A DNA stretch of 64,000 nt from Alphaproteobacteria bacterium (GTDB lineage: Bacteria; Pseudomonadota; Alphaproteobacteria; RF32; CAG-239), in assembly GCA_028706255.1 (NCBI GenBank), contig JAQWBS010000005.1, forward strand, positions 35,673 to 99,672, written 5' to 3'. A program made the translations under genes and the position numbers. Under the pieces are notes generated by a model. The model worked only from the letters and a program-made list of their open reading frames with translations. It was not told the origin of the DNA and did no database searches. Each line of letters begins with the position of its first letter. The first letter of the stretch is position 1. Positions 1 through 19,915 of this stretch are shown here, piece after piece.

Positions 1-125
1 GGGCAAGACCGCATTATGTTTTAGACATTGATGAACAAGACTTTGCAATTGAAATGCTAAAGCTTCTGGATAAGCTTCTCCCTTTCCCAAAACCTAAAAA
101 GAAAAAAGTTAAAGTAATAGATTAA
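1..125 (+). CDS. 3' end of a CDS that starts upstream of the window (…LDKLLPFPKPKKKKVKVID*); product unknown
   Basis: Open frame from the window edge to TAA at 123-125; lysine-rich tail; no family recognised. Confidence 0.3.
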   Translation, partial: ARPHYVLDIDEQDFAIEMLKLLDKLLPFPKPKKKKVKVID

Positions 126-233
126 GTCTTTTGCTTTGATTGGATTGCCACGCTTCGCTCGCAATGACAGCACTCAATTGTCATATTCGGGTTGTTTTTT
201 TTTTTAGTCATATTCGGGCTTGACCCGAATATC
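126..233 (-). repeat. Composite palindromic repeat: GTCATTGCGAGCGAAGCGTGGCAATCCAATCAAAG core plus an ATATTCGGG-N5-CCCGAATAT hairpin with GTCATATTCGGG half-sites; inverted copy of the element at 19797-19913
   Basis: Direct comparison: 126-168 is the reverse complement of the 19474/19859 core; 180-233 is the reverse complement of 19797-19852. Confidence 0.75.
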
Positions 234-238
234 CATAT

Positions 239-1618
239 TTAATATTTCCCTTGGTAAGCATCTTTTTCGGCATCTTTGATTCTGTTTTCAAGGTCGGCAA
301 TTTTGAGGGAAAGGGCGGGGGTTGGATTTCCTTTCTTTGCCATATCAAGTTGTTTGTTTGCGGCATCAAATTGTCCTAAACGTAAGCTAGATTCTGCAGA
401 AGCATAATTTGCTTCCGTCATTTTCCCCCGCATTGCATAAGTTCTTGCGAGCAGTAGCCAAGCTTCATAAGTTGGTTGCACAATGACAACTTTGTTCAAA
501 TTTCTTTCTGTTTCAATAAGTTCCGCTTGTGTCGGCTCATCTTCCAACGTTGCTTGGGCTAAACTAACCATAAACAAATTAGAAGTTGGTAACAGGCTTA
601 AAGCCTTTTTATATTCTGTCTTAGCTTGTTTCACATTGCCTGTTTCAAGATAAATTTGAGCTTTCAATTCGTGAAAAAACGGATTGTTGGGTTCAAGCGA
701 AATGAGTTCATCAATCAATGCAATGGCTTTCTTCTTTTGCATAATCCGATAATTAACAATAGCAAGCGCATATTTCTCAACAATGGTTTGTCCTTTGCCA
801 TAAGCTGCGAAAACCATTTCAGGAGGATAAATAAAAGCATAAAGCTTGGCTTTAACACGGCGAAATTCCTCGGTTTGAGTCACTTGTTTGTAAGGTGAGT
901 TTTGCGTGGCTTCCTCAATGAAAGAAATCCTTTCTTTGGTCACAGGGTGCGTTCTGAAATATGGTGTTTCGCTAACGCCAGTGGCTAAATTTTCTTGCTC
1001 AATTTTTTTCATAAAATTACGCATGCCCTGAGGTGAAATCTGATTGTCGTTCAACAAGCGAACACCTGCTTCGTCAGCACTTCTTTCTTCTTGAACACGA
1101 TAATTGAGATAGTTGTTCATCATTGAGCTTTGAGAGCCAAGCATTAATGCCATACCAACATCACCACGACCACTGGCAATAGCGGCCGCTCCTGCAACCA
1201 GCATTGAAGCTAAACCAGCCTCACTTAATTGTTGAGCTTTCAATTTACCTCGTAAGATATGTCCACCTTGAATATGTCCAATTTCATGGGCAATCACGCC
1301 ACGAAGTTCATCATCGCTACCGGCTCTAACAATAGTCCCCGTGTTGATGAAAAGCAAATTACCGTCCGCCACGAAAGCGTTCAAACTTTCGTCAGAGAGA
1401 ATATAGACATTATTACGATTAAAAGGAATGTTTGCACTGCGAAACAGTGGAACACTTAGCTTTTGAATGAAGCTTTCCGTTTCTTCATCATAGATAATGG
1501 TTTGGGCTTGCAAATTACCAACAAGCAAAAAACTTGCAAGCAGAATAAAACTGCTCACAAGCTTTTTGTTGATTTTTCTGAAGAGGGGGCTTAGCCTCCG
1601 ATAAGTTTTCTCCACCAA
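239..1618 (-). CDS. bepA: M48-family zinc metalloprotease with C-terminal TPR repeats (BepA/YfgC-like periplasmic protease)
   Basis: Signal-peptide-like N-terminus; HEIGH zinc motif (VIAHEIGHIQGGH); TPR-like C-terminal half; the annotated start overlaps the rne stop by about 28 nt, so the true start may be downstream or a non-ATG codon. Confidence 0.75.
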   Translation of the reverse strand: MVEKTYRRLSPLFRKINKKLVSSFILLASFLLVGNLQAQTIIYDEETESFIQKLSVPLFRSANIPFNRNNVYILSDESLNAFVADGNLLFINTGTIVRAGSDDELRGVIAHEIGHIQGGHILRGKLKAQQLSEAGLASMLVAGAAAIASGRGDVGMALMLGSQSSMMNNYLNYRVQEERSADEAGVRLLNDNQISPQGMRNFMKKIEQENLATGVSETPYFRTHPVTKERISFIEEATQNSPYKQVTQTEEFRRVKAKLYAFIYPPEMVFAAYGKGQTIVEKYALAIVNYRIMQKKKAIALIDELISLEPNNPFFHELKAQIYLETGNVKQAKTEYKKALSLLPTSNLFMVSLAQATLEDEPTQAELIETERNLNKVVIVQPTYEAWLLLARTYAMRGKMTEANYASAESSLRLGQFDAANKQLDMAKKGNPTPALSLKIADLENRIKDAEKDAYQGKY

Positions 1619-3975
1619 GTAGATTTTCCTTTCTTCTCTTTTTTCTCATTTCCGTTGCCAGATTCTTCGTTACGACGCTCTTCATAACGATTGCCATTTT
1701 CACGGTTTTCAAAACGACGACGGTTATTATATCTGTTCTTACGGCGATGATTATTGTTATTGTTATTGCGATTGCCGTTATTGTTGTTTTGTCTGTCGTC
1801 AGAAGATTTATCGTTATTTTCTTCCCAATAAATTTCTTCTTGTTTTTCAGGCTCATTAACTGTTTCAGTTGCTTCAGCCTTTTCTTCAACATCATTGCCG
1901 TTGCTTTTGGTTCTTTCAATTTTAAGACCAGCCACGTTTTTGATGCTGTCATCAGCACTAATGATAATGGTCATGTTATATTTATTTTCCAAGGCAACCA
2001 AAACTTCTCTTTTATTATTGAGAATATAAATGGCGATGTTGCTTGGAATGTAAACGTTAACTGAACTAAAACGGTTTTTGATGCCTTCGGCTTCAATTTC
2101 ACGCAAAACAGAGATTGCACTAGATTCAACAGTGCGGATGATGCCTTTGCCTAAACAGTGTGGACAAGGCTCATAACTTGTTTCAAAGAAAGACGGGTGC
2201 ATTCTTTGACGAGAAATTTCAATCAACCCAAAAATGCTCATCTTACCAACTTGAACACGGGAACGATCTTTTTTCAAAGCTTCTTTGATGCGTCGTTCAA
2301 CAGCTTGGTTATTTGCATTTTCATCCATATCAATAAAGTCGACTACAACCAAACCAGCAAGGTTACGCAAACGCAATTGACGAGCAATTTCATCAGCCGC
2401 TTCCAAATTGGTTTTAAGTGCTGTTTCTTCCAAGTCTTTCTCACGAGTTGAACGCCCAGAGTTGACATCAATTGCCACCAAAGCTTCTGTTGGGTTAATC
2501 ACCAAATAGCCACCAGATTCCAATTGAACAGTAGTGTCGTGCAGTTTTTCAAGCTGTCCTTCAACTTGAAAACGTTGGAAAAGAGGAATGTCGTTTTCAC
2601 GGCAAGTCTTAATTTTCTTCAAGCTTTGTGGCGAAAGAATTTTAATAAATTCACGAGCCAATTGATAGGCTTTTGCACCATCAACAATCACTTCTGAAAC
2701 ATCTTTGGTGTACATATCACGTAAAGAGCGTTTAATGAGGTTTGCTTCTTCATAAATGAGCGTTGGGGCTTTGCTCTTCAAAGAATCGTGTCTGATTTGA
2801 TTCCATGTTCTCATCAAGTAGTTATAGTCACGGCAAATGTCTTCTTTGCTCTTTTCTTCGCCCGCAGTTCTGACAATCATAGACATATCAGAAGTTAGCG
2901 GAAGCTCTTTCAAAATATTTTTAAGTCTTTTTCTGTCGTTGCCGTTAGTAATTTTGCGAGAAACGCCACCACTTTTAATGCGGTTAGGCATCAAAACGCA
3001 ATATCTGCCAGCAAGAGAAAGATAAGTGCTAAGTGCAGCGCCTTTGTTGCCTCTTTCTTCTTTCACAACTTGAACAACAACAATTTGTCCTTCTTTGATG
3101 ACTTCTTGAATTTTTTTACGATGGAAAAGTTTACGAGAAATCATTAGTTTTCTCAAAACTTCATCGTTAAAGCCTTGTTCCTCATCATCATCGTCATCTT
3201 CATCATCGTCAAATTCGTCTTCTTCATTGTCACGAGAGAATTTTTTACGAGAAGATTTGTATGGTTCATCTTCAGAAATTTTTTCTTCTTCAGTTCCCGT
3301 TGCTTCAGCGGAGACTTTTACTTTGTCGCCACTTGGTCTTCTGCGGTTTTTGTGATTTTTCTTCATCAAACGGCGAGATTTGTTTTTTTGTTGCTCGTCA
3401 TCAGAAGCTTCGTCAGGGGTTTCTTCTGAAGGTTCAGTGGAAGTTTTTTCAGAATCTGTTTCAGAGCTAGTTGTGGAACTTTCTTCTGTTTCACACACAG
3501 TTTCTGCTTGGGCTTCTGTTTGAGTTTCTTGAGAAACTTCTTCAGAAGATTCTTCATTTTTTTCTGCTTCGGTTTTTTGAGCTTCTAGCTTTTTTTGTTC
3601 TTCAATTGCACGAGCGGATTCTCTTTCTTCACGAGCTTTTTCTCGTTGCAATTCTTTTTCTTTGAGGGCTTGTTTTTTGCCTTCAATAAATTCATCAACT
3701 TCTTTTTCAACTTCAGCCAACTCTGTGTCTGAAACATTGTAATAGTCTGGGTGAATTTCACCAAAAGCCAAGAAGCCATGCTTATTGCCACCATAATCAA
3801 CGAAGGCAGCTTGCAGGGAAGGTTCAACACGAACAACTTTTGCTAAATAAACATTTCCTTTAATTTGTTTTCTAAAACTTGATTCAAATTCAACATCTTC
3901 AAGTTTGTTTCCATTTACGACAACAACCCTTGTTTCTTCAGGGTGTGTGTCATCGATGAGCATTCTTTTTGTCAT
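1591..3975 (-). CDS. rne: Ribonuclease E
   Basis: N-terminal S1/catalytic domain (MTKRMLIDDTHPEE…, RNase E/G core motifs); large acidic Glu/Asp/Ser-rich insertion typical of alphaproteobacterial RNase E; Asn/Arg-rich C-tail; ATG at 3975 chosen by N-terminal conservation (ORF-track start is 9 codons upstream). Confidence 0.9.
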   Translation of the reverse strand: MTKRMLIDDTHPEETRVVVVNGNKLEDVEFESSFRKQIKGNVYLAKVVRVEPSLQAAFVDYGGNKHGFLAFGEIHPDYYNVSDTELAEVEKEVDEFIEGKKQALKEKELQREKAREERESARAIEEQKKLEAQKTEAEKNEESSEEVSQETQTEAQAETVCETEESSTTSSETDSEKTSTEPSEETPDEASDDEQQKNKSRRLMKKNHKNRRRPSGDKVKVSAEATGTEEEKISEDEPYKSSRKKFSRDNEEDEFDDDEDDDDDEEQGFNDEVLRKLMISRKLFHRKKIQEVIKEGQIVVVQVVKEERGNKGAALSTYLSLAGRYCVLMPNRIKSGGVSRKITNGNDRKRLKNILKELPLTSDMSMIVRTAGEEKSKEDICRDYNYLMRTWNQIRHDSLKSKAPTLIYEEANLIKRSLRDMYTKDVSEVIVDGAKAYQLAREFIKILSPQSLKKIKTCRENDIPLFQRFQVEGQLEKLHDTTVQLESGGYLVINPTEALVAIDVNSGRSTREKDLEETALKTNLEAADEIARQLRLRNLAGLVVVDFIDMDENANNQAVERRIKEALKKDRSRVQVGKMSIFGLIEISRQRMHPSFFETSYEPCPHCLGKGIIRTVESSAISVLREIEAEGIKNRFSSVNVYIPSNIAIYILNNKREVLVALENKYNMTIIISADDSIKNVAGLKIERTKSNGNDVEEKAEATETVNEPEKQEEIYWEENNDKSSDDRQNNNNGNRNNNNNNHRRKNRYNNRRRFENRENGNRYEERRNEESGNGNEKKEKKGKSTWWRKLIGG

Positions 3976-4002
3976 AATTATTAAATTAACTCCGCAACAC
4001 AT

Positions 4003-4519
4003 ATAGCTGTGATTAAACAGCCAAAATTTATCTTAAAATGTTGTTTGAGAATCGAAAAAAGGGAGCTACACCAAACAGACCTTTGCCTTAAGAGGGGCAA
4101 AAGAAGTGTCGCTTTTAAAAAACTGCAAAGATTTATATCTATATTTTCAATTTATCTCTGCAAAATTTCAATTTTTTTGAACATTCATTCCTTGTTATTG
4201 CTTATTACGATGTTCAAAAGATAAAACTCAATCAACAAAAACTTTTCATTTCAACTATGTGATAATATTCAGTCGCTATGAAAGAATATGGTATCAACAA
4301 TTAAATCCACCTAAAAAACAAATGATATAATAGAATTTAACGCCAATATTTTTTAATTCACATAATCTAACAATAAAATATACAAAGATAATTAAAATTA
4401 CAACATTAATTTTGGTTATCTGAAAAAAATATTTTTTTTAACGCATTGGTAATAACTATTTTATATAACTTAAGTAAGTAGTGAATTTTGCATTTTAACG
4501 GACTAGAGCGACCCCAACA
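4003..4519. promoter_or_regulatory. AT-rich 517-bp divergent intergenic region: probable long rne 5' leader plus the amiC promoter
   Basis: Long non-coding gap between divergent rne and amiC; contains the hairpin CTTTGCC-N8-GGCAAAG (4080-4101); RNase E genes typically carry long autoregulatory leaders. Confidence 0.3.
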
Positions 4520-5761
4520 ATGAAAAATGTTTTTCAAAAATTAAGAAACATGCTGAGAACTTTAAGCTTTTTGTTACCGTTTTGTTGTCTTGCGACAAGC
4601 GAAGCTTTAGCTTATGATGTTTCAGATATTCGCATTGGGCAAGGGGTTGGAAGCATTCGCATCGTTTTTGATTCTTCCAAAAAATTTGATTATAAAGTTT
4701 TCTTGCTGGATGGTCCGAAAAGACTTGTGGTTGATATTTATGGAGCGACAGTTAATCCACGCATTGAAAAAGAAGTGACTGATAGTGATTTTGTGGAAAA
4801 CTTAAGAGTTGGGACAAAAATGGGGGATTCAACCCGCATTGTGTTTGACTTGAAAAAAAGTTCTATCATTAAAAAAGCTTTTGTTTTACCTCCTCAAAGC
4901 AGTTTTGATTGGCGTTTTGTGGTGGATATTTCTTTGGCTTCTGACCGTCAATATGCACAGAGCGTGGGAGCTGATAAGGCTTTCAGTAGCAGTGACACCA
5001 TTCAAGATTATTCCGACCGTGCAACAGCAACTTCAAGCTATTCTGCACCGAAATCTTCAGGAAATAAGAAAAGAATTATCGTCTTAGACCCTGGGCATGG
5101 TGGAAAAGACCCTGGGGCAATTGGTTATTCAGGCGTTTATGAAAAAAACATCACCTTGGCTATGGCGAAAGAATTAAAAGCACTTTTAGATAGAGATTCT
5201 CGTTATAAAGTTTATTTAACCAGAAATCGTGATGTGTTTATCTCTCTTCGTGATAGGGTAAAAATTTCTCGAAATCATGATGCAGATTTGTTTATCTCTA
5301 TTCATGCAGATAGTGCAAGAAATAGAAATGCAGTCGGACTTTCTGTTTACACTTTGTCTGAAGTGGCATCGGATAAGGAAGCAGAAGCTCTGGCTGACCG
5401 TGAAAATAAGGCAGATATCATTGCTGGGTTGAATCTTGTGGAACATTCTAAAGAAGTTTCAGACATTCTCATCAACTTGGCACAAAGAGAAACGATGAAC
5501 CGTTCATCTGAATTTGCTTCTTTTATGGTGGTTGAGATGAGAAAAGTTGCGAAAATTTTATCTAACACACATCGTTTTGCTGGGTTTGCGGTTTTAAAAG
5601 CGCCTGATGTGCCTTCTGTTTTGTTGGAAATGGGTTATCTTTCTAATAGAACCGAGGAAAGACTTTTGAAACAACCGTCATATCGTAAAAAATTGGCAAC
5701 AGCCACGAAAAAGGCAATTGATAAATATTTCGAAAATATGCAGCAAGCTTCTGTATTTTAA
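4520..5761 (+). CDS. amiC: N-acetylmuramoyl-L-alanine amidase with N-terminal AMIN domain (AmiC-like)
   Basis: Signal peptide; AMIN-like N-domain; Amidase_3 motifs (LDPGHGGKDPGAIG, …SIHADS…). Confidence 0.85.
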   Translation: MKNVFQKLRNMLRTLSFLLPFCCLATSEALAYDVSDIRIGQGVGSIRIVFDSSKKFDYKVFLLDGPKRLVVDIYGATVNPRIEKEVTDSDFVENLRVGTKMGDSTRIVFDLKKSSIIKKAFVLPPQSSFDWRFVVDISLASDRQYAQSVGADKAFSSSDTIQDYSDRATATSSYSAPKSSGNKKRIIVLDPGHGGKDPGAIGYSGVYEKNITLAMAKELKALLDRDSRYKVYLTRNRDVFISLRDRVKISRNHDADLFISIHADSARNRNAVGLSVYTLSEVASDKEAEALADRENKADIIAGLNLVEHSKEVSDILINLAQRETMNRSSEFASFMVVEMRKVAKILSNTHRFAGFAVLKAPDVPSVLLEMGYLSNRTEERLLKQPSYRKKLATATKKAIDKYFENMQQASVF

Positions 5762-5870
5762 TAAAATTAAAAATTATCCATATATTGCAATATTTTACTG
5801 TTAAAATAGAATAAATTGTTATAAATTGTGGGTTCAGTTTATTATAATCAAATTTAGCTCGGATATATTA

Positions 5871-8342: not shown

Positions 8343-8354
8343 GAGAGTTAAGAA

Positions 8355-9450
8355 ATGAATATTGAAATTGCAAATGCCATAGAAGAAATTAAAACCTCAT
8401 TAGAGCTTATTCGGAGGTCTCTTTGACTATGATAATGCACTTATTCGTCTTGATGAATTAAACGCTCTTTCTCAAGATTCTAACTTATGGAATGATGCTG
8501 AAAAAGCTCAAAAGTTGATGAGTGAGAAAAACACTCTGGAAACAGCCTTGGCGGATTATGACGACATGAGCCAAGCGGTTGTTGACCTTGCTGAGCTTGC
8601 AGAAATTGCTGATGAAGATGATAACGAAATGTTGCAAGATATTGTGGCACAAGTTGAACATCTGAAAACGGAAGCAAAAAGAAAAGAACTTGAAGCGTTG
8701 CTTTCAGGGGAAGTTGATGCCAATGATGCCTTTTTAGAAGTGCATGCTGGAAGTGGTGGCACAGAGGCGCAAGATTGGACACAAATGTTGCTCAGAATGT
8801 ATGCTCGTTGGGCAGAATCACATAAATATAAAGTGGAATATCTTGAAGAAACCGAAGGGGATGTTGCGGGTATCAAATCTGTCACCATTAAAATTGCTGG
8901 CAAAAATGCTTATGGCTGGTTGAAGTCTGAAACAGGGGTTCATCGATTGGTGAGAATTTCTCCTTTTGATAGTTCAGCAAGAAGACACACGAGTTTTGCT
9001 TCGGTTGGGGTTTACCCTGTGATTGATGATGAAATCAAAATTGAAATCAAAGAAAGTGATTGCAGAATTGACACTTACAGAGCCAGCGGGGCAGGTGGAC
9101 AGCACGTTAACAAAACTGATTCAGCAATTAGAATTACGCATATTCCAACAGGAATTGTGGTGCAATGTCAAAATGACCGCTCCCAATTTAAAAACCGTGA
9201 TGCCGCATGGAAAATGTTGAAAGCCCGTCTTTATGAACTAGAACTTCAAAAAAGAGAAGCGGAAGCACAAGGCTTGAGAGATTCTCAGACAGACATTGGC
9301 TGGGGACATCAAATTCGTTCCTATGTTTTGCAACCTTATAAGCTTATCAAAGACTTACGCACTGAAGTTGAAACCTCAGATTCAAAAAGTGTGCTTGATG
9401 GCGAAATTGATTTGTTCTTAGAAGCTTATCTGTCACACAAGGTTGGGTAA
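8355..9450 (+). CDS. prfB: Peptide chain release factor 2, expressed through a programmed +1 ribosomal frameshift at CTT TGA C (8421-8427)
   Basis: Frame 0 ATG at 8355 runs 23 codons to an in-frame TGA at 8424-8426; it is preceded by an SD-like GGAGG and the CTT slippery codon; the +1 frame continues ([17 protein letters not shown]…) into the 311-aa RF2 ORF with its GGQ motif. Confidence 0.9.
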
Positions 9451-9453
9451 GCG

Positions 9454-10287: not shown

Positions 10288-10293
10288 TTAGAA

Positions 10294-13200
10294 ATGGGAA
10301 TGTTAAATAAGAAAAAATATTTAGCCAGAAGAATTACGGACTATGTCGGAACAGCGATTTTTGCTTTCTTGCTCATTTTTATATGGCAACTTTATCGTTC
10401 GCCAATTCCATTGCCTTTCTTAAAGCCATATATCATCAAAGCCTTGAATCACGATAGTCAGGAATATGCTGTGGCGGTTGAAAGTGTGAACTTAGAATTA
10501 GTCCGCTCCATTCAGCCAATTAAGATTATTGCTCGAGAGGTTGAATATAAAAACAATAAAGGTAGCATTTCAATTAATGCACCAAGAATTGAAATTTCAT
10601 TCAGTGTACGTGCCTTAATTCGAGGCATAATTTCGCCGAGTTCTGTTGTGTTTGATAGCCCATCTGTTTCCGTTTTTACCAACTATGGTGAAACAGATAA
10701 AAGTTCTGAAATGAGCTTGAATGAGAAAAAAATCGGCTATTATTTCGACACTTTCAATCGCTTCATTGAGCGTTTCAATTCGCAAGATTTATCTTATCCT
10801 GAAAGTTATATCAATTATATTGCCATTCAAAATGGTGATTTTGAGTTTCATGAGGTTGACCTTAATCGAAACTGGAATTTTGTTAAAGCAAATTATGTGT
10901 TTGATAGGGATAGAGAAGATATAAACATTGGCATTGATGGTAATTTGATGATGGGTGAAGAAGCTGTTCCGCTTGATTTTGATTTGAAATATATGCCAAA
11001 AGTTGAGAAAGTTGACATTGATTTAGCCTTTTCAAATTTCTTGCCCTCAAAGGCTGTGGAAGCTTTTATTTCCGAGCAAGAACAAGCTGCAATCTATAAG
11101 GTTGATGTGCCAATTAATGGCAAACTTGACATTCTTGTCGATTTTAAGAAAGTTTTACAAAACAAGAATAATATCTCTAAGAGTTTAGACACTGCTGTTG
11201 AAGACTTCAAATTTAGATTTGAAGGAGATGATGGCAAAATTGCTTTTTCTGATAATGAAGCGTTTAACTATGACATTAAGGCATTTAGTTTGTCTGGGGA
11301 AGTTGACAGTGGCTTAAATGAAATTAAAATTTCTGATGCGCAGTTTGATATGGGAGAGAAGTCGACTTCTTTGAGTTTATATATTTCAGGTTTTAAAAAT
11401 TTATTACTCAAGAGTTCAATGAAAGACTTGAAAATTACGCTCAAGACTGAAGTTGAAAAAATGAATTTTAGCGAATTGCCTCGTTATTGGCCACGCTATA
11501 TTGCTGAAGATGCTTGGATTTGGGTTAAAGAAGGGATTTATGAGGGAGAAATTAAGGACGCTGCTTTTGCGTTTGAATTTGCTTATGACGCTAAACAAAA
11601 AGGACTTGCTTTCAAAAATTTAAGTGGAGAAGGAAAAGTCGAAAATGCCTCTTTGAATTATCTTGAGGGAATGCCTCATGCGCATAAAGTTTTTGGAAAA
11701 GCCACCTTTTATAATGATAAAATTGATATAAAAATTGATAAGGGTGAATCTGTTGGGAATAAGCTCACAGATGGACGTGTGATTTTATATGATTTAGATA
11801 AATATGATAACTTCATAGATATTCAACTTTCAGCAACTTCTTCCATTCCTGACGCTTTAAAGTTGATTGATAGCCCACCTTTGGAATTTGCAAGTGAAAT
11901 GGGCATTAAACCAGATGATATTTCTGGAAAAGCTGAAATCAATCTTAAACTAGATTTTGAATTAAAGAAAACTTTGACACCTGAAGAAGTGAAAGTGGCA
12001 GTTCAGTCCAAACTTTCAGATGTTACCATTAAAAATATTATCAAAGATAAAATCATCAAAGGGGATAGACTTGATTTGTCTGTGAATAATAAAGAAATGG
12101 TGGTGCGTGGTGATGTTGTGATTGATGAACTTCCAATGAATTTGGTTTGGCAAAAGCCTTTTATGAATAATAAATATCTCAATAAATATGAACTTTCATT
12201 TGATTTGAATACGCATATGAAGAAAAAACTAGGTTTTGATTTTGATATTTTGAAAGCCCCATATTTTATTGGCGATACCAAAATTAAGGCGAATGTGCTA
12301 GAAGTGAAAACAAATAAGTTTAAAGTCAATTTTGCTTCAGATTTGCTTGAAAATGAGATAAATTATGCCTTCCTTGGGTTTCTTAAAGAAAAAGGCGTGG
12401 TCGGAAGTTTGAATTTTTCCGTTGATGTGGAAAATGACAAAGTGAAAAAAATTAATGAGATAAAACTCACTAAAGAAGATTTTGAAGTTGAAGCTTCAAT
12501 GGATTTGAACAAAAAAGGTGAAATTGAAACCATTGATATCACGAAAGTGAAAGGACCCAAAACAAGTGCCAAAGCTAAGGTGATGATGAGCAAAGTGAAT
12601 GGTCAAGAACTAATTAAAGTGAACATTTCTGGATTGAGCTATGACATTTCTAATCTTTTTGAGATAAATATTAAAAGCAATGAAAAAACAGACTTAGATC
12701 CTGAAGAATATCTTAAACAAATGCCAAATACGGACATTAACATTGCCGTGGATAGCTTATGGACAAACAAAGAAGTTCCTGTGACGAACTTTGCGGGAAA
12801 TATGAAAATCAGGAACAAAATTGGCATTGATGAAATAAAAATGGTGGGCAATTTTGCGTATGTTAAAGATTCAAATTTCAGGTTTGAATATCTGCCAAGA
12901 GAACAAGGTGAGCATCTCATTAATGTCACCAGTAGTGATGCTGGAAAAGCTCTGAAAATTTTGAGGCTATATGACTATATGAATGGGGGAGATTTAAAAA
13001 TTTCTGCGCTTAAAGAAAAAGATGGTAAAATTGTTGGGCATGCCAAAATTAGAAGTTTTAACATCTTAAACACCAGTTTGTTGGCAAAAGTGGTGAGTAT
13101 GGCATCTTTAACAGGCATTATTAACACGTTGAGCGGTGAAGGAATTGCTTTTTCTCACCTTGACGTGCCATTTGAATTTGATGGTAGTGTGATAGAGATG

Positions 13201-13491
13201 AAAGAAGCAAAAGCTTTCGGAAATGTGTTGGGAATTTCGGCAAATGGTTATTATGATTATGACACAAGCCGTATAAAACTGGGAGGAATGCTTGCCCCTG
13301 CTTATAGTATCAATCGTTTTCTGGCAGGAATTCCACTGGTTGGAAGATTGCTTTCAGGAAAAGATGGCACAGTCTTTGCCGCGAGCTATCGTGTTTCTGG
13401 GGATGCGGAAAACCCTAAAATTAAAGTTGATCCACTTTCGGCAATTAGCCCTAATTCTATTAAAGAGATGTTTTCTAAAGATGAAAATTAA
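10294..13491 (+). CDS. AsmA-family / DUF3971 large envelope protein (AsmA_2 C-terminal domain)
   Basis: N-terminal TM; 1065 aa; C-terminal region (…GISANGYYDYD…GGMLAPAYSINRFLAGIPLVGRLLSGKDGTVFAASYRVSGDAENPKIKVDPLS…) matches the conserved tail of AsmA/YhdP-like proteins. Confidence 0.6.
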   Translation: MGMLNKKKYLARRITDYVGTAIFAFLLIFIWQLYRSPIPLPFLKPYIIKALNHDSQEYAVAVESVNLELVRSIQPIKIIAREVEYKNNKGSISINAPRIEISFSVRALIRGIISPSSVVFDSPSVSVFTNYGETDKSSEMSLNEKKIGYYFDTFNRFIERFNSQDLSYPESYINYIAIQNGDFEFHEVDLNRNWNFVKANYVFDRDREDINIGIDGNLMMGEEAVPLDFDLKYMPKVEKVDIDLAFSNFLPSKAVEAFISEQEQAAIYKVDVPINGKLDILVDFKKVLQNKNNISKSLDTAVEDFKFRFEGDDGKIAFSDNEAFNYDIKAFSLSGEVDSGLNEIKISDAQFDMGEKSTSLSLYISGFKNLLLKSSMKDLKITLKTEVEKMNFSELPRYWPRYIAEDAWIWVKEGIYEGEIKDAAFAFEFAYDAKQKGLAFKNLSGEGKVENASLNYLEGMPHAHKVFGKATFYNDKIDIKIDKGESVGNKLTDGRVILYDLDKYDNFIDIQLSATSSIPDALKLIDSPPLEFASEMGIKPDDISGKAEINLKLDFELKKTLTPEEVKVAVQSKLSDVTIKNIIKDKIIKGDRLDLSVNNKEMVVRGDVVIDELPMNLVWQKPFMNNKYLNKYELSFDLNTHMKKKLGFDFDILKAPYFIGDTKIKANVLEVKTNKFKVNFASDLLENEINYAFLGFLKEKGVVGSLNFSVDVENDKVKKINEIKLTKEDFEVEASMDLNKKGEIETIDITKVKGPKTSAKAKVMMSKVNGQELIKVNISGLSYDISNLFEINIKSNEKTDLDPEEYLKQMPNTDINIAVDSLWTNKEVPVTNFAGNMKIRNKIGIDEIKMVGNFAYVKDSNFRFEYLPREQGEHLINVTSSDAGKALKILRLYDYMNGGDLKISALKEKDGKIVGHAKIRSFNILNTSLLAKVVSMASLTGIINTLSGEGIAFSHLDVPFEFDGSVIEMKEAKAFGNVLGISANGYYDYDTSRIKLGGMLAPAYSINRFLAGIPLVGRLLSGKDGTVFAASYRVSGDAENPKIKVDPLSAISPNSIKEMFSKDEN

Positions 13492-13954
13492 AAGTCTTAA
13501 AATTGGACTGGATTTTCATGGAGTCATTAATGAGCATTATAAATTTTTTGAAGAATTTACGTCGCTTGCTTTAGCGAGAGGGCATAAAATTTTTGTCATT
13601 AGTGGAGGAAAAGGGGCTGTCTTGAAAAAAGAGTTGGCAGAGCACAACATTAAATATAGTGAGCTTTATTCTCTTTATGATTATTTTTCAGCATTAGGTT
13701 TGGTTGAAACGTTATCGGATGGCAGGTTTTATGTTGATGAAACTTTGTGGAACAAGCAAAAGGCAATTTATTGTTTGGAACAAAAAATTGATGTCCATAT
13801 TGATGATAGCATAGGATATTTACATAATTTTGAAACAGATTACTATCATTGCAATCCAGAGCAAAAGAAATGTTTTTGCTCTTGCCAAAAAGAAGTTCCA
13901 TTCTTTGTTAATCCGCACTTAGCCCTTCAGGAGATTGAAAAGACCTTTGGTTAA
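13481..13954 (+). CDS. Hypothetical protein (158 aa); start overlaps the stop of the AsmA-family gene
   Basis: ATG at 13481 overlaps the upstream stop (13489-13491); weak HAD-like LDFHGVI / VHIDDS motifs; the ORF-track extension to 13292 overlaps the previous gene and is rejected. Confidence 0.4.
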   Translation: MKIKSLKIGLDFHGVINEHYKFFEEFTSLALARGHKIFVISGGKGAVLKKELAEHNIKYSELYSLYDYFSALGLVETLSDGRFYVDETLWNKQKAIYCLEQKIDVHIDDSIGYLHNFETDYYHCNPEQKKCFCSCQKEVPFFVNPHLALQEIEKTFG

Positions 13955-13959
13955 TGACC

Positions 13960-14190
13960 TCAATCAAAGGTCTTTTTTGCATAATCACGATATGCTCTGA
14001 GCAATTTTTCAAGCTTAATTGGGTTGAGTTCTTTCTTCTTTAATTTTGCAATATCTTTCGTTTTATTCAGACAAACTGCATTGAGCCATTTTTTATCATA
14101 GCTTATGTTTTGTTGTAAAAAATTATATCTATTTTCAAGTTCGTTGAGGGTTTCTGAAGCTCCCTCAAGATAAATTTTATTGTTTCTCAT
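13960..14190 (-). CDS. Hypothetical 76-aa protein co-transcribed downstream of the phage repressor
   Basis: 3-nt gap from the repressor stop; charged, helical; no family recognised. Confidence 0.4.
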   Translation of the reverse strand: MRNNKIYLEGASETLNELENRYNFLQQNISYDKKWLNAVCLNKTKDIAKLKKKELNPIKLEKLLRAYRDYAKKTFD

Positions 14191-14193
14191 TTT

Positions 14194-14802
14194 TTACTGA
14201 CTTACCCATAAAATTCGATTGATTTCTTTGATTTTGCTAATTTCTAAGCTAATTTCTTTTTGTTTATCATTTAGCTCTATAATTTCGATTGTGCGAGCTG
14301 TTCTGCGAATAAATTCACCGATAAAAATGTTTCCATCAGAATATTTCACAAGGATTCGGTCTTTGCGTCTGGTTTCAGAATTTTGAGAGAGAATTAGAAT
14401 TGAGCCAATGTCATAAATGAGGGTTTCACAATCAATTTCTATGGCATAAAGCTTGTCTTTACTGTCTGGAAATTTGATTTTTTTTAGATAAGTCTTATCC
14501 TCTAAAAGCTCAGCATTTTCTTCAAGTTTTGAGAGCTCAACATAAGGAATATTGTGCGCTAAACTCTTGGGAGAAGATGTTTTTCCTAAGTTATAAAACT
14601 CTTCAAAACTGATGTGACAAGATTCGATAATTTTTTGAATACTATCTAAAGAAGGGAATCTTTTCTTTCCATCAGGTCTTGTTCTTTTGCTTTTATTGAA
14701 GGTTGTGGAGTCAAGCCCTGCTTTTTTTGCGAGTCCGGAAGCTGATAAACCATTTGCTTTGGCTAAGTTATCAACAGCGTCCCAAATTTTTTCGTGATTC
14801 AT
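14194..14802 (-). CDS. Phage CI/LexA-like repressor (N-terminal XRE HTH, C-terminal S24-like peptidase domain)
   Basis: HTH segment LSASGLAKKAGLDSTTFNKSKR; C-terminal β-rich domain with a LexA-like layout (…IGSILIL…LVKYSDG…); divergent to the + strand phage genes. Confidence 0.7.
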   Translation of the reverse strand: MNHEKIWDAVDNLAKANGLSASGLAKKAGLDSTTFNKSKRTRPDGKKRFPSLDSIQKIIESCHISFEEFYNLGKTSSPKSLAHNIPYVELSKLEENAELLEDKTYLKKIKFPDSKDKLYAIEIDCETLIYDIGSILILSQNSETRRKDRILVKYSDGNIFIGEFIRRTARTIEIIELNDKQKEISLEISKIKEINRILWVSQ

Positions 14803-14967
14803 GTTATCTCCTTAAAATCAAGCTATTAACGATTATGTCACTCATTATATATCAAATATAAATAGGAATCAAATCTTTTTTTGATTGAAATTCCTACAAC
14901 CTTATGTATAACCTCATACAGTTAATAAACTATTAATAATATTATACAACTAAAAGGAGTTTTGCTA
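14803..14967. promoter_or_regulatory. Divergent switch region between the repressor and the early operon (candidate operators and promoters)
   Basis: AT-rich 165 bp; inverted repeat AATCAAA-N7-TTTGATT; AAGGAG SD 8 nt before ATG 14968. Confidence 0.4.
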
Positions 14968-15297
14968 ATGGGGAGAATGTATGAGCCTTTTGAGAATGCA
15001 GAAGAGGTTTGGTTCTGGTTTTGCAGTAGCCTTATCAGCCAAGAAGACGGTTGGCGTGCCATGGGTGATTATGGGGGAAAAGAACGTTGTTGCGAAATCA
15101 ATGATATCTATCGAATTATTAAGAGGTTGAAGCTTTGTCACGAAACATCTAATCGTCATTTAAGAGTTGCTCTGAAATGGGGTAAGGAACTGACACCGCC
15201 ATATTATGCTAAAAGAGCAAAGAGAAGCGAAGTGAGAATCTGGGGGGAATTTATCACGGCTTTAGAAACTGCTTTGAAGAAAAAAGGAATTATATGA
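14968..15297 (+). CDS. Hypothetical phage early protein (110 aa, Trp/Cys-rich)
   Basis: Good SD (AAGGAG) then ATG; first gene of the operon divergent from the repressor; no family recognised. Confidence 0.5.
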   Translation: MGRMYEPFENAEEVWFWFCSSLISQEDGWRAMGDYGGKERCCEINDIYRIIKRLKLCHETSNRHLRVALKWGKELTPPYYAKRAKRSEVRIWGEFITALETALKKKGII

Positions 15298-15704
15298 AAA
15301 TGAATAATGCTATAAGCCAAGAAATTTCAGAATATTATGTTGTGTTTATTGATGAAACAAGCCTGTGGTGGTTGAGGTTTTTGAAAAAAGGCTTTCGCCA
15401 TTGTTATTTGCTTTTTCAGATTGATGAGGGAATGACATGGGTTGAAGCGAATCCTATGTCTAATCGTTTTTTCTTTTGTACCTATTCGTTTTGTGAAAAA
15501 GTTGATTATATTGCGGAGCTTAAAAAACAAATGAACTGTGAAATAATTTTACAAAAAGTTGAAAATGTTGGTTTAAAAATCGCACCGCTTAGTTTTTTTT
15601 CTTGTGTGGAATTTGTCAAGAGAAGCTTGGGGATTCATAGCTTTTGGACAATCACACCTTATCAGTTGTATAAAAAATTAAAGATTGTAGGAAAAAAGTC
15701 TTGA
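15294..15704 (+). CDS. Hypothetical phage early protein (136 aa)
   Basis: Start overlaps the previous stop (ATGA), so the two are translationally coupled; no family recognised. Confidence 0.5.
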   Translation: MKMNNAISQEISEYYVVFIDETSLWWLRFLKKGFRHCYLLFQIDEGMTWVEANPMSNRFFFCTYSFCEKVDYIAELKKQMNCEIILQKVENVGLKIAPLSFFSCVEFVKRSLGIHSFWTITPYQLYKKLKIVGKKS

Positions 15705-15767
15705 CAAATGGTTTTTTATATGTTACACCCTTAATTGTCACTAGGGAGTAGTGTATCTAAAATTTAT

Positions 15768-15800
15768 AAAGCTCAGTTGTTTAACTGGGCTTTATTTTTT
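15768..15800 (+). terminator. Rho-independent terminator between the early genes and the tail genes
   Basis: AAAGCTCAGTT-GTTT-AACTGGGCTTT stem followed by ATTTTTTT. Confidence 0.5.
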
Positions 15801-15867
15801 TAGAAAAATGGTGAAGTGGTTTTTAGTCTTTCTTTTGGAAAGGCTATTTTTTTTATTTAGGTGTTTT

Positions 15868-16476
15868 ATGAGCGAGAAGAAAATTAAAACAATTAAGGCT
15901 TTGAAAACACGTTTGAAGAAAACTTTAAGTATTTGCTCTAAAGCTTTATTTAAGCTTGGAGTTGATGGCATTGTTTCCTTTGAAGAAGGAACAGCAGAGG
16001 CGGACATTTCCAACAATCTGTTTGGGTTAATCCGTGATGGGCTTCTTTCTTCATATCCTTGGAGTTTTGCCACTGCACAAAAAAGATTGCCACGCCTTTC
16101 TGAAAATCCGTTAGCAGACTATAAATATGCTTATCTGTTGCCAAACGATTATTTGCGAATGATATCCGCAGGTTCAGGCACAAGAGGGCTTGGGTTAGAG
16201 TATCGCATTCAGAAAAATATGCTACATACTAACGCAGAAGAGGTGGTAATTACTTATATTTTTCGTCCGAAAGAGGAAGATTTTCCTCCGTTTTTTTGCG
16301 ATGTTTTGACCACAAAATTGGCGTCAGAATTTTGTTTGCCGCTCACGGAAGATAATGCCAAAGCAAATATTTTAATTAAAAGGGCTGAAGAAGAAATTAA
16401 AAATGCTCGATTAATTGATTCTCAACAAGCAACCCCGAAAAAGTTTGAAGATTTTACCTTGGTTGAGGTGAGATGA
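15868..16476 (+). CDS. Podovirus tail tubular protein A (T7 gp11-like)
   Basis: Translation aligns by eye along its length with T7 gp11: W-[ST]-F block, DYL-x-[LM]-[MI]-S block, …FPPFFCDVLTTKLASEF… versus …MPECFRYWIVTKASRQF…, and an acidic EEE block. Confidence 0.6.
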   Translation: MSEKKIKTIKALKTRLKKTLSICSKALFKLGVDGIVSFEEGTAEADISNNLFGLIRDGLLSSYPWSFATAQKRLPRLSENPLADYKYAYLLPNDYLRMISAGSGTRGLGLEYRIQKNMLHTNAEEVVITYIFRPKEEDFPPFFCDVLTTKLASEFCLPLTEDNAKANILIKRAEEEIKNARLIDSQQATPKKFEDFTLVEVR

Positions 16477-18374
16477 TGGCGAATATGTTTTCAGTTAAAA
16501 CAAATTTCACAGCAGGGCAAGTTTCTGAAAAAATTTTTGGACGAGGAGATTTAGGGGTTTATGAAAATGGGGCAAGAACTTTGGAAAATGTCATCATTCA
16601 ACCAACAGGCGGTGTTTCAAGAAGAAAAGGCTTGAAATTAGTTGATGAAGTTGAGGCAAAAGCAAAGCTTATTCCATTTGAGTTTAACGTGAATCAGACT
16701 TATCTTTTGTGCTTGTTTAACAACAAAATGCGTGTTTATAAAGATGATATGTTGATTGCTGAAATTGCCACGCCTTGGGCAAATGACCAACTTAATCAAC
16801 TAAACTGGACACAAAGTGCGGATACGCTTTTGGTGGTTCATCCTGAAGTTGCACCTAAGAAAATTACCAGAAATCTTGATGAGGTTTGGAAGGTGGAAGA
16901 TTGGGAATATTACACAAAAGATGGCATGGTTTTCTGCCCTTATTATAACTTTTATCAAAACAGAAATAATTTGCAGTCAAGTGGCACAAGTGGAACAGTG
17001 ACCTTAACAGCAACGGAAGATGTTTTCAGCACAGGCTATGTGGGGGTAATGATAAAACTTGGAACAGGGCTGGTAAAGGTGACGGAATATCTCACCACAA
17101 AGACAGTGAAGGCTTTGGTTTTAAAAAATGTGACAACAACAAGCACAAATGAATGGGAAGAACAGTCTTTTTCACCACTCAGAGGTTATCCAAGGTCGAT
17201 TACTTTTCATCAAGACAGGCTTGTGATTGGTGGCTCTAAAGGCTTGCCCAATCGATTGTGGTTTTCTAAGTCGTCAGATTTATTTAATTTTGACTTAGGC
17301 ACAGGGCTTGATGATGAGGCAATTGAATTTGCCATTTTGTCAGACCAAATCAATGCTATCTGCAATCTCGTTTCCAGCCGTCATTTGCTGATTTTTACCA
17401 CAGGGGCAGAATGGATGTTGTCTGCGGAAACTTTAACGCCAACCAGCTTAGTCTTGAGTTGTCAAACCAATACGGGAAGTTATGGGAAGAATAATCTCTT
17501 ACCGCAACAGATTAATGGGGCGACAGTGTTTGTTTCTAAAAATGGCAAGCAATTGCAAGAGTTTTTATATACAGACACCGAACAGGCATATTTAAGCAAA
17601 GACTTAAATTTGTTGGCAGATAATATTTTACAACAACCGCTTTCAATTGCTTTTTCACAATATGAAAATGTGGTTTATTTGGTGTTGGAAGACGGCACGG
17701 TTTCGGCTTTAACAACTTATCGAACGGAAGAGGTTAATGCTTGGAGCAAGCTTAAAACTTCAGGAGAATTTGTTTCTGTTGCCGTTATTGGGGAAGAAAT
17801 TTATTTTGCTGTGGCAAGAGGAGAAAGATTCTTTATTGAAAGATTTAGCGACACTTTTTTTGCGGATTGTGCAGTTGAATTAACAAGTGAGGATAATCAA
17901 AGCCATTGGGAGGGATTAAGTGTTTACGAAGGGCAAGAGGTTTGTGTTTCCTCAAAGGGGTATAATCTTGGGAAATATATTGTTCAAGATGAGGCAATTG
18001 ACTTGTTTGAGGAAACATCAAAGATTTATGTCGGACTTCCATATGAACATCTGATTGAACCTATGCCTTATATGATGGAAAATATCAAACCAATGCCGGT
18101 TAAAGGACTGCGTGTGGTGAATGCTTTATTTAGATTAATCAACAGCAAGTCTTTTAGGCTTAGATTGGCAGATGAATATGTGACTATTCCTCTAAAGAGA
18201 ATGTATAAAGACCAAATTTTAGATGCTCCTGCAAATAATTTTTCCGGAGACATTAATGTGCGTTCTTTGAAGTGGCTCAGAGAGATGAACTTGCCCATGT
18301 GGAGCATTAAAAGTGATGAACCTGTGGCGTTTAATCTGCTTTTGGCAGCAATGGAAGTGAAAATTAAAATTTAA
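16473..18374 (+). CDS. Podovirus tail tubular protein B (T7 gp12-like)
   Basis: Start overlaps the gp11-like stop (ATGATGG); N-terminal GGVSRRKGLKL and PNRLWFSKSSDLFNF blocks resemble the T7 gp12 motifs GLQKRP and RNRLGF…FNFYP; position immediately after the gp11-like gene. Confidence 0.5.
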   Translation: MMANMFSVKTNFTAGQVSEKIFGRGDLGVYENGARTLENVIIQPTGGVSRRKGLKLVDEVEAKAKLIPFEFNVNQTYLLCLFNNKMRVYKDDMLIAEIATPWANDQLNQLNWTQSADTLLVVHPEVAPKKITRNLDEVWKVEDWEYYTKDGMVFCPYYNFYQNRNNLQSSGTSGTVTLTATEDVFSTGYVGVMIKLGTGLVKVTEYLTTKTVKALVLKNVTTTSTNEWEEQSFSPLRGYPRSITFHQDRLVIGGSKGLPNRLWFSKSSDLFNFDLGTGLDDEAIEFAILSDQINAICNLVSSRHLLIFTTGAEWMLSAETLTPTSLVLSCQTNTGSYGKNNLLPQQINGATVFVSKNGKQLQEFLYTDTEQAYLSKDLNLLADNILQQPLSIAFSQYENVVYLVLEDGTVSALTTYRTEEVNAWSKLKTSGEFVSVAVIGEEIYFAVARGERFFIERFSDTFFADCAVELTSEDNQSHWEGLSVYEGQEVCVSSKGYNLGKYIVQDEAIDLFEETSKIYVGLPYEHLIEPMPYMMENIKPMPVKGLRVVNALFRLINSKSFRLRLADEYVTIPLKRMYKDQILDAPANNFSGDINVRSLKWLREMNLPMWSIKSDEPVAFNLLLAAMEVKIKI

Positions 18375-18389
18375 CGAAAGGAGGAAAAT

Positions 18390-18770
18390 ATGGGAGCAAC
18401 GGCTTTAACAGTAGCTGCTGTGGCAGCTTTTGCAAATCAAAAACATACTGAAAGAAAAACTAGAAGTGCAGAGTTGAAAAGTATACGAAGGCAACAGGCA
18501 ATTAATGAGGCGAAAAAGAAGAATATTTTAGAAGGACAATTGGCAGCAAGAAGAGCCAAAGTTGGAAGTTTAGGAATTTCAACTTCAGGGTCAAATGTTG
18601 CTGTTCAAAATAGATTGGTGGGAGATGCTCAGCGTGAAATTTCTTATGATAATTGGGGCTATCAGGATAAATATGCTCAAGTCTTTAATAATTATCAAGA
18701 CAAAATAAGGAGCGAAGCTATTGATTATGCCCCAAAAGTTTATAATTATGTTGAGAAAATGATAAAGTAG
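18390..18770 (+). CDS. Hypothetical phage protein (126 aa); an internal-virion-protein-like slot after tail tubular B
   Basis: Strong SD (AAGGAGGAAAATATG); positional analogy to T7 gene 13; no sequence family recognised. Confidence 0.45.
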   Translation: MGATALTVAAVAAFANQKHTERKTRSAELKSIRRQQAINEAKKKNILEGQLAARRAKVGSLGISTSGSNVAVQNRLVGDAQREISYDNWGYQDKYAQVFNNYQDKIRSEAIDYAPKVYNYVEKMIK

Positions 18771-18780
18771 GAGAATTGGA

Positions 18781-18975
18781 ATGCCACGAAAAAAAGAAAC
18801 TTATTTGGAAAAAAGAAAAAAAGCTTATCTGAAAGAAATTCCAATTGAAGAGCAATTAGATGCTATCTTAAAAGCTTTTGATATGGTTTTACAGGAAGAT
18901 GGCGTTTTGCCTTATGAACTAATTGATGTGATTGAAAAATGGCAGAAGATTAAGTTTAAATTTCCCAAAGAATGA
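18781..18975 (+). CDS. Hypothetical small protein (64 aa)
   Basis: SD GGAGAATTGGAATG; Lys-rich; no family recognised. Confidence 0.4.
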   Translation: MPRKKETYLEKRKKAYLKEIPIEEQLDAILKAFDMVLQEDGVLPYELIDVIEKWQKIKFKFPKE

Positions 18976-18985
18976 TGCAAAAAAA

Positions 18986-19013
18986 GTGACCCAAAGAGAA
19001 GTCTTTGGGTCAC
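18986..19013. terminator. Bidirectional hairpin terminator between convergent genes
   Basis: GTGACCCAAAG-AGAAGT-CTTTGGGTCAC, a perfect 11-bp stem; A-run on one side and T-rich run on the other, which gives a strong T-run for the minus-strand gene 19049-19294. Confidence 0.5.
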
Positions 19014-19048
19014 GTTTGTAAAATGAAAAAACAAAAATTTAGGAAAAA

Positions 19049-19294
19049 CTATTTTTTCTTATTTTTCTTTTCCAAGTCTTTCAAAATTTCAGGCTTATAA
19101 ATTTCGAGAATTTTATAAACACCAATTAATCCAACTAAAATATAGATTAAATTAACGATGAAACCTAAGCCAATAATATCAAACATATGATGTAAAATAT
19201 CAACATCAAGAAGTCCAAGAACGAGGTAATATGATGTGGCAAAGACGCAGATGAGGTTGCCAAATTTTTTAATGAGTTCAATAATTTTATCCAT
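19049..19294 (-). CDS. Small two-TM membrane protein with a highly charged C-terminus (holin-like)
   Basis: 81 aa; two hydrophobic helices; KDLEKKNKKK tail; convergent with the phage structural genes. Confidence 0.4.
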   Translation of the reverse strand: MDKIIELIKKFGNLICVFATSYYLVLGLLDVDILHHMFDIIGLGFIVNLIYILVGLIGVYKILEIYKPEILKDLEKKNKKK

Positions 19295-19404
19295 TTTCTA
19301 TCTCCGATGAGGAATTTTGAAATAATAACAGCTTTAATATTAAACAGTTTTTTATAATATTCAAGAATTTCCATGCAATTATTAATATTTGTGTGAAATT
19401 TTTA

Positions 19405-19915
19405 TCTCGGTCATTGCAATGTTTTTCTGTCATTGCGAGCGAAGTGTGAGATAATAGAACATTCTATCATCTTTGTCATTGCGAGCGAAGCGTGGCAATC
19501 CAATCAAAGCATGAATCCAAATAGCAATATCTCTCCATTCAGGTAGAGCCTCAGTCGAGATGACAGGAGTAAAGATAATCCCTAAAAAGCAATATCTCTC
19601 CGTTCGCTTCGCTCAGTCGAGATGACAGGGGCTTGAGAGGACATAAAAGAATTGTCATTTCGAAATTGACAACGTCAATGAGAAATCTTGCCTTATCGTC
19701 ATTCCATCACTTCCTTTATCATTTCCCATACTTCTCTGTCATTCCCAACGTCCTCCTCGTTGTCATTCCCGAGAAATCGGGAATCCACCTTTATGGATAT
19801 TCGGGTCAAGCCCGAATATGACAACTTAAAAATTAGCCCGAATATGACCCCTATGTATTGTCATTGCGAGCGAAGCGTGGCAATCCAATCAAAGAATGAA
19901 TCTGAATAGCAATTT
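19405..19915. repeat. Cluster of short palindromic repeats of the GTCATT family (GTCATTGCGAGCGAAG x3, GTCATTCCCGAGAAATCGGGAATCC hairpin, AGCAATATCTCTCC…TCAGTCGAGATGACAGG x2, ATATTCGGG-N5-CCCGAATAT)
   Basis: Repeated motifs visible in both orientations; 8-bp stem with GAAA loop at 19765-19784; no long ORF with sensible composition. Confidence 0.75.

Follow-up and report, generated by a model that had tools for sequence, protein, structure and literature searches.

A pair of roughly 110-bp composite repeats in inverted orientation, found in a 64,000-nt stretch of an uncultured alphaproteobacterium (contig JAQWBS010000005.1, positions 35,673 to 99,672; hereafter the window), is best read as two local accumulations of short hairpin units, each with an orientation, that belong to the class formed by the Neisseria repeat NTS and the Ssn-related motifs (SRM). 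The copies, A at the left and B at the right, bracket 19.6 kb of chromosome, and this segment appears to be ancestral and collinear with that of relatives. We put the probability of this reading, including the mechanism proposed below, at roughly 0.78. Six observations made here carry it: the architecture of the units, their non-randomness, their restriction to intergenic DNA, their identity across phyla, their adjacency to GIY-YIG genes in other genomes, and their absence from the orthologous spacers of relatives.

Aligning 110-250 of the minus strand with 19780-19920 of the plus strand gave three 100% identical blocks of 31, 12 and 36 nt, none of which is expected by chance; hence, the composite repeat in inverted orientation described in a sequence-only reading of this DNA is confirmed, at 126-238 and 19792-19913. 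The 31-nt block (TATGGATATTCGGGTCAAGCCCGAATATGAC) holds the hairpin ATATTCGGG-TCAAG-CCCGAATAT plus GAC, the 12-nt block is CCCGAATATGAC, and the 36-nt block is TGTCATTGCGAGCGAAGCGTGGCAATCCAATCAAAG. Between the blocks, the two spacers agree in just 8/15 and 3/10 columns, and therefore the differences are concentrated in the spacers; the copies do not differ by merely a few substitutions, as had been proposed. The arrangement of a hairpin, two half-sites and a core is present as read, but one half-site per copy is merely the 3' arm of the hairpin.

We compared pattern counts with dinucleotide-preserving shuffles of the sequence and found two copies of the hairpin ATATTCGGG-N5-CCCGAATAT (0 expected), four copies of CCCGAATATGAC (0.1 expected) and three exact copies of the 27-nt core (0 expected), at 142-168 on the minus strand and at 19475-19501 and 19860-19886 on the plus strand. 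Hence, the picture of exactly two copies fails at the third full core (19475-19501). This core with its extension (19473-19528) is direct to copy B, with a 56-nt match at 95%, and inverted copies share at most 38 nt of perfect identity, where the 132-169 region is 100% complementary to 19474-19511. Two truncated cores (19410-19421 and 19429-19449) had also been missed. About 13 short oriented units, which fall into five types, fill 19410-19913 as a continuous mosaic inside the intergenic spacer 19295-20101, and this 0.5-kb mosaic is comparable to the dRS3/NTS clusters of Neisseria or the bacterial interspersed mosaic elements (BIMEs) of E. coli. With the translation of the composite open reading frame (ORF) 19688-19909 as the query, protein searches for further composite copies called as genes returned no candidate.

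Read on the proper strand, the units have a common plan of a GTCAT head, a stem-loop and an (A)ATCC tail. The H unit (GTCATATTCGGGCTTGACCCGAATATCC; 9-bp stem and 5-nt loop) occurs in identical copies at 207-234(+) and 19795-19822(-), the C unit (GTCATTGCGAGCGAAGCGTGGCAATCC) is the core found at three positions, the N unit (GTCATTCCCGAGAAATCGGGAATCC) lies at 19762-19786(+), the E unit (GTCATTTCGAAATTGACAACGTCAATGAGAAATCT, a nested hairpin) lies at 19654-19688(+), and the D unit (GTCATCTCGACTGAG...) is present in two copies on the minus strand. The pattern GTCAT-stem-loop-stem-(AT)C[C/T], seen in the H, N, C and E units, has the head, palindrome and 3' C that characterize Ssn-related motifs. Each composite combines a full H unit with a 3'-truncated H head, which precedes it by 26-27 nt, and with a C unit that faces them head to head from the other strand; the right-hand site additionally holds the third C unit plus the D, E and N units. 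Folded as single-stranded DNA (ssDNA), the H unit reaches -8.2 kcal/mol (z = -5.7) and the N unit -7.7 kcal/mol (z = -4.1), and the fold of the E unit is marginal. In the H and N folds, the GTC head and the CC tail are unpaired, as NTS is drawn. Scanning the entire 64 kb for GTCAT followed by a perfect stem, we found convincing units only in the two intergenic spacers. The C unit has 59% GC versus 37% (36.9%) for the window.

The repeat class to which we refer was described in 2025, with NTS of Neisseria (CGTCATTCCCGCGMAVGCGGGAATCYRG), its variant NTSvar (CGTCATACTCGGGNNNNNCCCGAGTATC) and the broader SRM (Chenal et al., Nat Commun 2025, PMC11893778). The cognate enzyme SsnA, a 94-aa single-domain GIY-YIG nuclease of the Ssn family (cd10448), binds its unit in a single orientation and only when it is folded ssDNA, with the cut falling a few nucleotides upstream; the bases critical for the nuclease are the three 5' of the palindrome and the C directly 3' of it (PMC11893778). 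The ssn genes are typically flanked by their own motifs (NTS-ssnA-NTS), NTS clusters are intergenic, and in N. meningitidis the system reduces transformation by NTS-containing DNA; strand-specific ssDNA binding and cleavage have been demonstrated only for the Neisseria and Wolbachia pairs (PMC11893778).

We found that the H unit is NTSvar except for one compensatory stem pair, C:G to T:A. A second Neisseria repeat, dRS3, is a 20-bp palindrome (ATTCCC-N8-GGGAAT) that is targeted by a phage integrase, and the palindrome of the N unit (19765-19784) is an exact match to this pattern, against a chance expectation of 0; no other unit type fits it. On their architecture and their association with GIY-YIG genes, we place the units in the class described in 2025, with variants that lie outside its published pattern.

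The exact C 27-mer was found by a scan of a genome collection in at least 119 genome stretches (loci L004-L122) from at least 10 phyla. Its hosts are Chloroflexota, Patescibacteria, Spirochaetota, Bacteroidota, Actinomycetota, Bacillota, Campylobacterota, Dependentiae and Thermodesulfobacteriota as well as alpha-, beta- and gammaproteobacteria. Many of these cores have an inverted partner, GGATTGCC...CTCGCAATGAC, 10-60 nt downstream, and the flanks of the cores are unrelated from genome to genome. The H unit was found in at least 120 metagenome contigs (loci L124-L243), many of them from gut and rumen. A second exact shared 27-mer is GTCATATTCGGGCTTGACCCGAATATC, and the loop CTTGA is present in 100 of 116 copies among the matches listed. 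Identical 27-mers across phyla in unrelated flanks suggest horizontal spread or very strong constraint.

Viral contigs carry the C unit in 12 stretches, some of them tandem arrays, without a GIY-YIG gene, and the H unit, when sought in viral contigs, was found in 0 stretches; hence, there is no clear phage vehicle. One IMG/VR contig (L247, at 2700-2900 and 12640-12820) has tandem full C units with a 37-45-nt period and no GIY-YIG gene. Predicted viral contigs also carry a variant of the C unit with a stronger inner stem (GTCATTGCGAGGGCGAAGCCCGTGGCAATCC).

Elsewhere, the units adjoin genes for small GIY-YIG proteins. Using a profile search of six-frame ORFs, we found a GIY-YIG ORF of about 90-100 aa within 300 nt of the C core in 6 of the 119 loci listed (L008, L020, L051, L075, L112 and L121), and these six ORFs match Pfam GIY-YIG (PF01541) with E = 1e-13 to 1e-17. 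At L020, the gene has C cores on both sides. C units upstream of the GIY-YIG genes lie on the strand of the gene, and 4 of 5 downstream units are inverted. For the H unit, 13 of the 120 listed loci have a GIY-YIG ORF, which adjoins the unit in 12 of the 13, with the unit mostly directly 5' of the gene (at L133 about 22 nt separate the end of the unit from the ATG); at L168, the ORF is 3.6 kb from the unit. All-against-all clustering of the ORFs within 1.5 kb of 137 core copies returned just one family that genuinely recurs, GIY-YIG; the cluster that ranks next consists of repeat-derived pseudo-ORFs, and no transposase family recurs near the cores.

The eleven nucleases extracted are 43-66% identical to each other, except for one pair at 98%. 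Near the C-terminus, 5 of the 6 nucleases beside C units carry K[AS]GSR.KK (L020 has the variant KATNRNAK), and nucleases beside H units (L133, L195, L196 and L231) carry KKW[NK]R[DE]WK. In this small sample, the C-terminal signature may pair nuclease subfamilies with motif types.

Several results weigh against assigning these units to a nuclease-linked class. The published SRM string, HGTCWYN(0-2)YYVSBRHN(0-5)WNVSBRGN(0-2)RNCYNB, has 0 hits in the window and 0 in the closest relative that we used (L123; 82% protein identity). The units miss it at one to a few stem positions, where they have AT-richer stems and the TGCGAG arm; we therefore base class membership on the fit in architecture and in neighbouring genes and not on this search string. 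The C and D units fold no better than shuffles (z = -0.55 and +0.53, respectively). Our unit counts for this organism cover the 64-kb window only, and in that window hmmsearch with a profile from the six repeat-adjacent ORFs found no GIY-YIG ORF at E up to 10. The GIY-YIG neighbours in other genomes reach only Pfam GIY-YIG, with a weak match to the PDB entry 1zg2, and a search of NCBIfam with them gave no specific model. Many of the loci are metagenome-assembled genomes (MAGs), so binning errors could explain part of the taxonomic breadth.

The inverted orientation of the copies had raised two possibilities, that they drive inversion of the intervening segment and that they are footprints of the same mobile element at both ends. 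Two other assemblies of the strain, an NCBI MAG contig and a Logan contig, are 100% identical to the window and collinear with it. The NCBI contig crosses copy B in the orientation of the window. Both ends of the Logan contig fall exactly within the repeats (window positions 208 and 19500), as short-read assemblies break at repeats.

In the 82% relative, the order from YhdP through rne to M48 is kept. M48 converges there with a TfoX_N-family gene, and since the C-terminus of this gene matches window 3-125, junction A is ancestral. The spacer at this junction is 65 nt in the relative and holds one different unit (TGTCATTCCCAACTTGATTGGGAATCTAT); the repeats of the window are absent. A more distant relative (63% identity) has M48, rne, amiC, PBP1a, RF2, hydrolase, YhdP, prophage, an 80-aa ORF, ArsR and ATPase in equal order and orientations on one 66.5-kb contig; its spacer between the 80-aa ORF and arsR is 196 nt, and neither of its spacers contains these units. 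The two intergenic spacers of the relatives are short and too diverged for alignable flanks. Since gene order is kept in relatives that lack the repeats, the repeats are lineage-specific intergenic insertions rather than the ends of a mobile or inverted segment.

A 19.6-kb segment that flips in the population by homologous recombination between the copies is therefore very unlikely, even though the copies are inverted with perfect blocks of 31 and 38 nt and the breaks of the Logan contig inside both repeats are what any repeat, invertible ones included, would give. A single orientation is seen in the three assemblies and in the two relatives, whose junctions and internal order are alike without the repeats, and GC skew keeps its sign across copy B. 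We found neither both orientations in these assemblies nor an adjacent invertase, with no recombinase or invertase domain among the ORFs of 1-23 kb. Moreover, identity of at most 38 nt is near the lower limit of RecA-dependent exchange and makes a poor substrate for homologous recombination. The related idea that the repeats are the two ends of a large mobile element or island that delivered rne through the prophage, in the manner of a composite transposon, gains from the H units at both ends pointing inward, which is the geometry of unit-ssn-unit elements. We rejected it, and give it next to no weight, because it is contradicted by synteny: the segment carries the core housekeeping genes rne, PBP1a, RF2 and yhdP, and the relatives without repeats keep those genes in order between the same neighbours. 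The third core and the many other units also break the two-ends picture. What stands of the mobile-element proposal is that both sites carry copies of one kind of small repeat; these do not delimit the 19.6 kb. Hence, we conclude that, in this lineage, the repeats were inserted into two spacers that already existed, and that the segment between them was not brought in from elsewhere or flipped. That the two clusters are inverted relative to each other around rne through the prophage is incidental.

Two further explanations concern the nature of the units themselves. Repetitive extragenic palindromes (REPs) and BIMEs maintained by a REP-associated tyrosine transposase (RAYT), an enzyme like the Y1 transposase of the insertion sequences (IS) IS200/IS605, instead of a GIY-YIG nuclease, would also be short, extragenic and palindromic, often in inverted doublets (as with the partners 10-60 nt downstream) and in mosaics. 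REPs carry a GTAG-type head and are normally species-specific; here, the head is GTCAT, the 27-mers are identical across phyla, and GIY-YIG alone recurs within 1.5 kb of the 137 core copies. We consider a REP/RAYT origin highly unlikely and rejected it on the head motif and the neighbour-gene analysis. That the hairpins serve the host as transcript signals (terminators, mRNA stabilizers or protein-binding sites), with similarity kept by selection, would suit the location of copy A between convergent genes and of copy B between divergent genes, as well as the stability of the H and N hairpins. It is unlikely as well, although the units may affect transcripts secondarily: no repeat unit qualifies in scans for intrinsic terminators and promoters, the repeats include neither the terminator-like site (18986-19013) nor the arsR promoter, the relatives manage without the units in much shorter spacers, and Rfam at its gathering threshold has 0 hits in the whole window.

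For clusters of NTS/Ssn-type hairpin units, the following mechanism is proposed by analogy with Neisseria. A unit would fold once the DNA becomes single-stranded, as in replication, repair or uptake, and a cognate Ssn nuclease would bind one orientation of it. Cleavage would fall a few nucleotides 5' of the unit, so that incoming or exposed ssDNA would be trimmed and recombination across the site lowered. Amplification of the repeats would likely depend on the pairing of nuclease and site, with the units as non-autonomous derivatives of an IS-like unit-ssn-unit element. Recognition of ssDNA, 5' cleavage and the effects on recombination and on repeat spread are carried over from the published system (PMC11893778).

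More tentatively, and with more doubt than confidence, the C and H units could be the cognate sites of two Ssn subfamilies (K[AS]GSR.KK and KKWNR[DE]WK, respectively) that spread horizontally, nearly unchanged, over at least 10 phyla. The arrays of truncated heads about 27 nt upstream could then be scars of amplification by 5' cleavage and template-switch repair, and the SRM string would miss this branch.

At the left-hand site, the minus strand of 132-169 holds a full C unit with a genome-specific 3' extension (AATCAAAG), which is the left 'core' copy. On the plus strand, 180-206 comprises a 3'-truncated H head (GTCATATTCGGG, 180-191) and then 15 nt of T-rich filler, and this head is 27 nt head-to-head from the full H unit at 207-234, the one resembling NTSvar. 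At the right-hand site, two truncated C units of a direct repeat family, GTCATTGCAATG (19410-19421) and GTCATTGCGAGCGAAGTGTGA (19429-19449), occupy 19410-19449(+), followed by the third full C unit with its long 3' extension at 19473-19528(+), inverted to copy A. A D unit (GTCATCTCGACTGAGG...GAGAGATATTGC) at 19526-19564(-) is tail-to-tail with the C unit at 19475, and a second D unit (GTCATCTCGACTGAGCGAAGCGAACGGAGAGATATTGC) lies at 19588-19626(-). Downstream of the E unit, truncated N heads with pyrimidine-rich fillers repeat on the plus strand with a period of about 20 nt through 19698-19761 (GTCATTCC at 19698, a degenerate one near 19719 and GTCATTCCCAAC at 19738) before the full N unit. The right hairpin copy is the full H unit at 19795-19822(-), the same as that at 207-234; a truncated H head (19837-19848) with a 14-nt AT-rich filler occupies 19823-19848(-), 26 nt head-to-head from it. 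The right 'core' copy is the full C unit with its extension at 19858-19913(+).

Same-strand arrays of 3'-truncated heads with T- or pyrimidine-rich filler thus precede full units at 180-234, 19698-19786 and 19795-19848. Unrelated metagenome contigs (L129, L132, L159, L165, L170 and L243) have a similar layout of half-unit and T-rich filler, and at L133 (2620-2760) an array of the kind seen at 19698-19761 adjoins the GIY-YIG gene. Among the matches listed, 18 of 116 H units have a truncated head within 60 nt upstream and 1 of 116 has one downstream. The head-to-head distance of truncated and full H units peaks at 27 nt, which is one unit length.

The content of the bracketed segment is as first read, with the M48 protease and rne towards the left and podovirus tail genes towards the right. 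Left to right, it holds an M48 protease, RNase E/G, an AmiC-type amidase, PBP1a, RF2, a hydrolase, YhdP, a prophage remnant and an 81-aa membrane ORF; to the right of the segment are arsR and then a P-type ATPase. The M48 metalloprotease/TPR gene (239-1615, minus strand) borders copy A, and the TfoX_N-family gene whose C-terminus lies at 3-125(+) is convergent with it and sets junction A. TfoX/Sxy proteins regulate competence in other bacteria, and the presence of this gene left of copy A is of note since Ssn/NTS systems act on transforming ssDNA. The TfoX_N-family gene is absent at this position in the 63% relative.

The 81-aa membrane ORF (19049-19294, minus strand) borders the mosaic and, with the arsR-family gene (20102-20473, plus strand), sets junction B. 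Just upstream of arsR and directly outside the mosaic is a near-consensus sigma-70-type promoter, TTGACA-17-TACAAT, at 19939-19967, and the repeats seem to have accumulated without disrupting it. The prophage remnant region (13292-18770) holds podovirus-type tail tubular genes at 15751-18374(+) (PHROG 394, 5.9e-47; PHROG 376, 1.1e-140) and a repressor-like ORF at 14194-14802(-). At the equivalent chromosomal position, the 63% relative (L244, 1-9100) has a fuller T7-like prophage with terminase, portal and capsid genes; therefore, the remnant in the window is a decayed old integration. The RF2 ORF (PCRF/RF-1) in 8480-9450, which begins at profile position 28, is overlapped by a short ORF upstream, a layout that looks consistent with the usual programmed +1 frameshift of prfB.

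These results turn a suspected hotspot of structural variation into what is better read as ordinary dispersed hairpin repeats, and the annotation becomes two intergenic Ssn-type repeat clusters rather than an invertible or mobile 19.6-kb segment. They also extend the Ssn-motif class of 2025 to unit types outside its published search pattern, with exact 27-mers common to bacteria of the candidate phyla radiation, spirochaetes, Chloroflexota, Bacteroidota and several proteobacterial classes. The type of motif appears to track the C-terminal signature of the adjacent nuclease. If this pairing is true, it would provide ready-made pairs of enzyme and site for ssDNA tools and a handle on how repeats multiply.

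Two inverted copies that bracket a chromosomal segment recall the inversions mediated by inverted copies of IS or rrn. The documented IS and rrn inversions involve repeats of hundreds to thousands of bp, unlike the at most 38 nt of perfect identity here, where no alternative orientation was seen. With the REP, BIME and REPIN (paired REP) systems of E. coli and Pseudomonas and their RAYT, the units have in common that they are extragenic palindromes in inverted doublets and mosaics, with a presumed mobilization in trans by a single-copy enzyme specific for ssDNA hairpins. They differ in the head motif, in their identity across phyla and in the associated enzyme, which is GIY-YIG and not an HUH Y1 transposase. 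Like the dRS3 repeats and intergenic mosaic elements of Neisseria (NIME), the units at 19.4-19.9 kb form a mosaic in intergenic DNA; unlike in Neisseria, this mosaic has a single dRS3-type unit and mixes five unit types, and we identified no 50-150-bp RS blocks between dRS3 pairs.

Relative to the Ssn-related motifs, the C unit (TGCGAG...GCAAT) is unlike in having only a 5-bp outer stem and a weak fold. The setting also differs from Neisseria, in that the host is an uncultured low-GC alphaproteobacterium, the window has no ssn gene, and the units are known from sequence alone. The units share with Ssn-related motifs the GTCAT head, the palindromic stem, the C after the palindrome, a length of 25-35 nt, and intergenic, clustered placement. 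They also share the company of small single-domain GIY-YIG genes, which they adjoin elsewhere in diverse phyla and, in one locus, on both sides.

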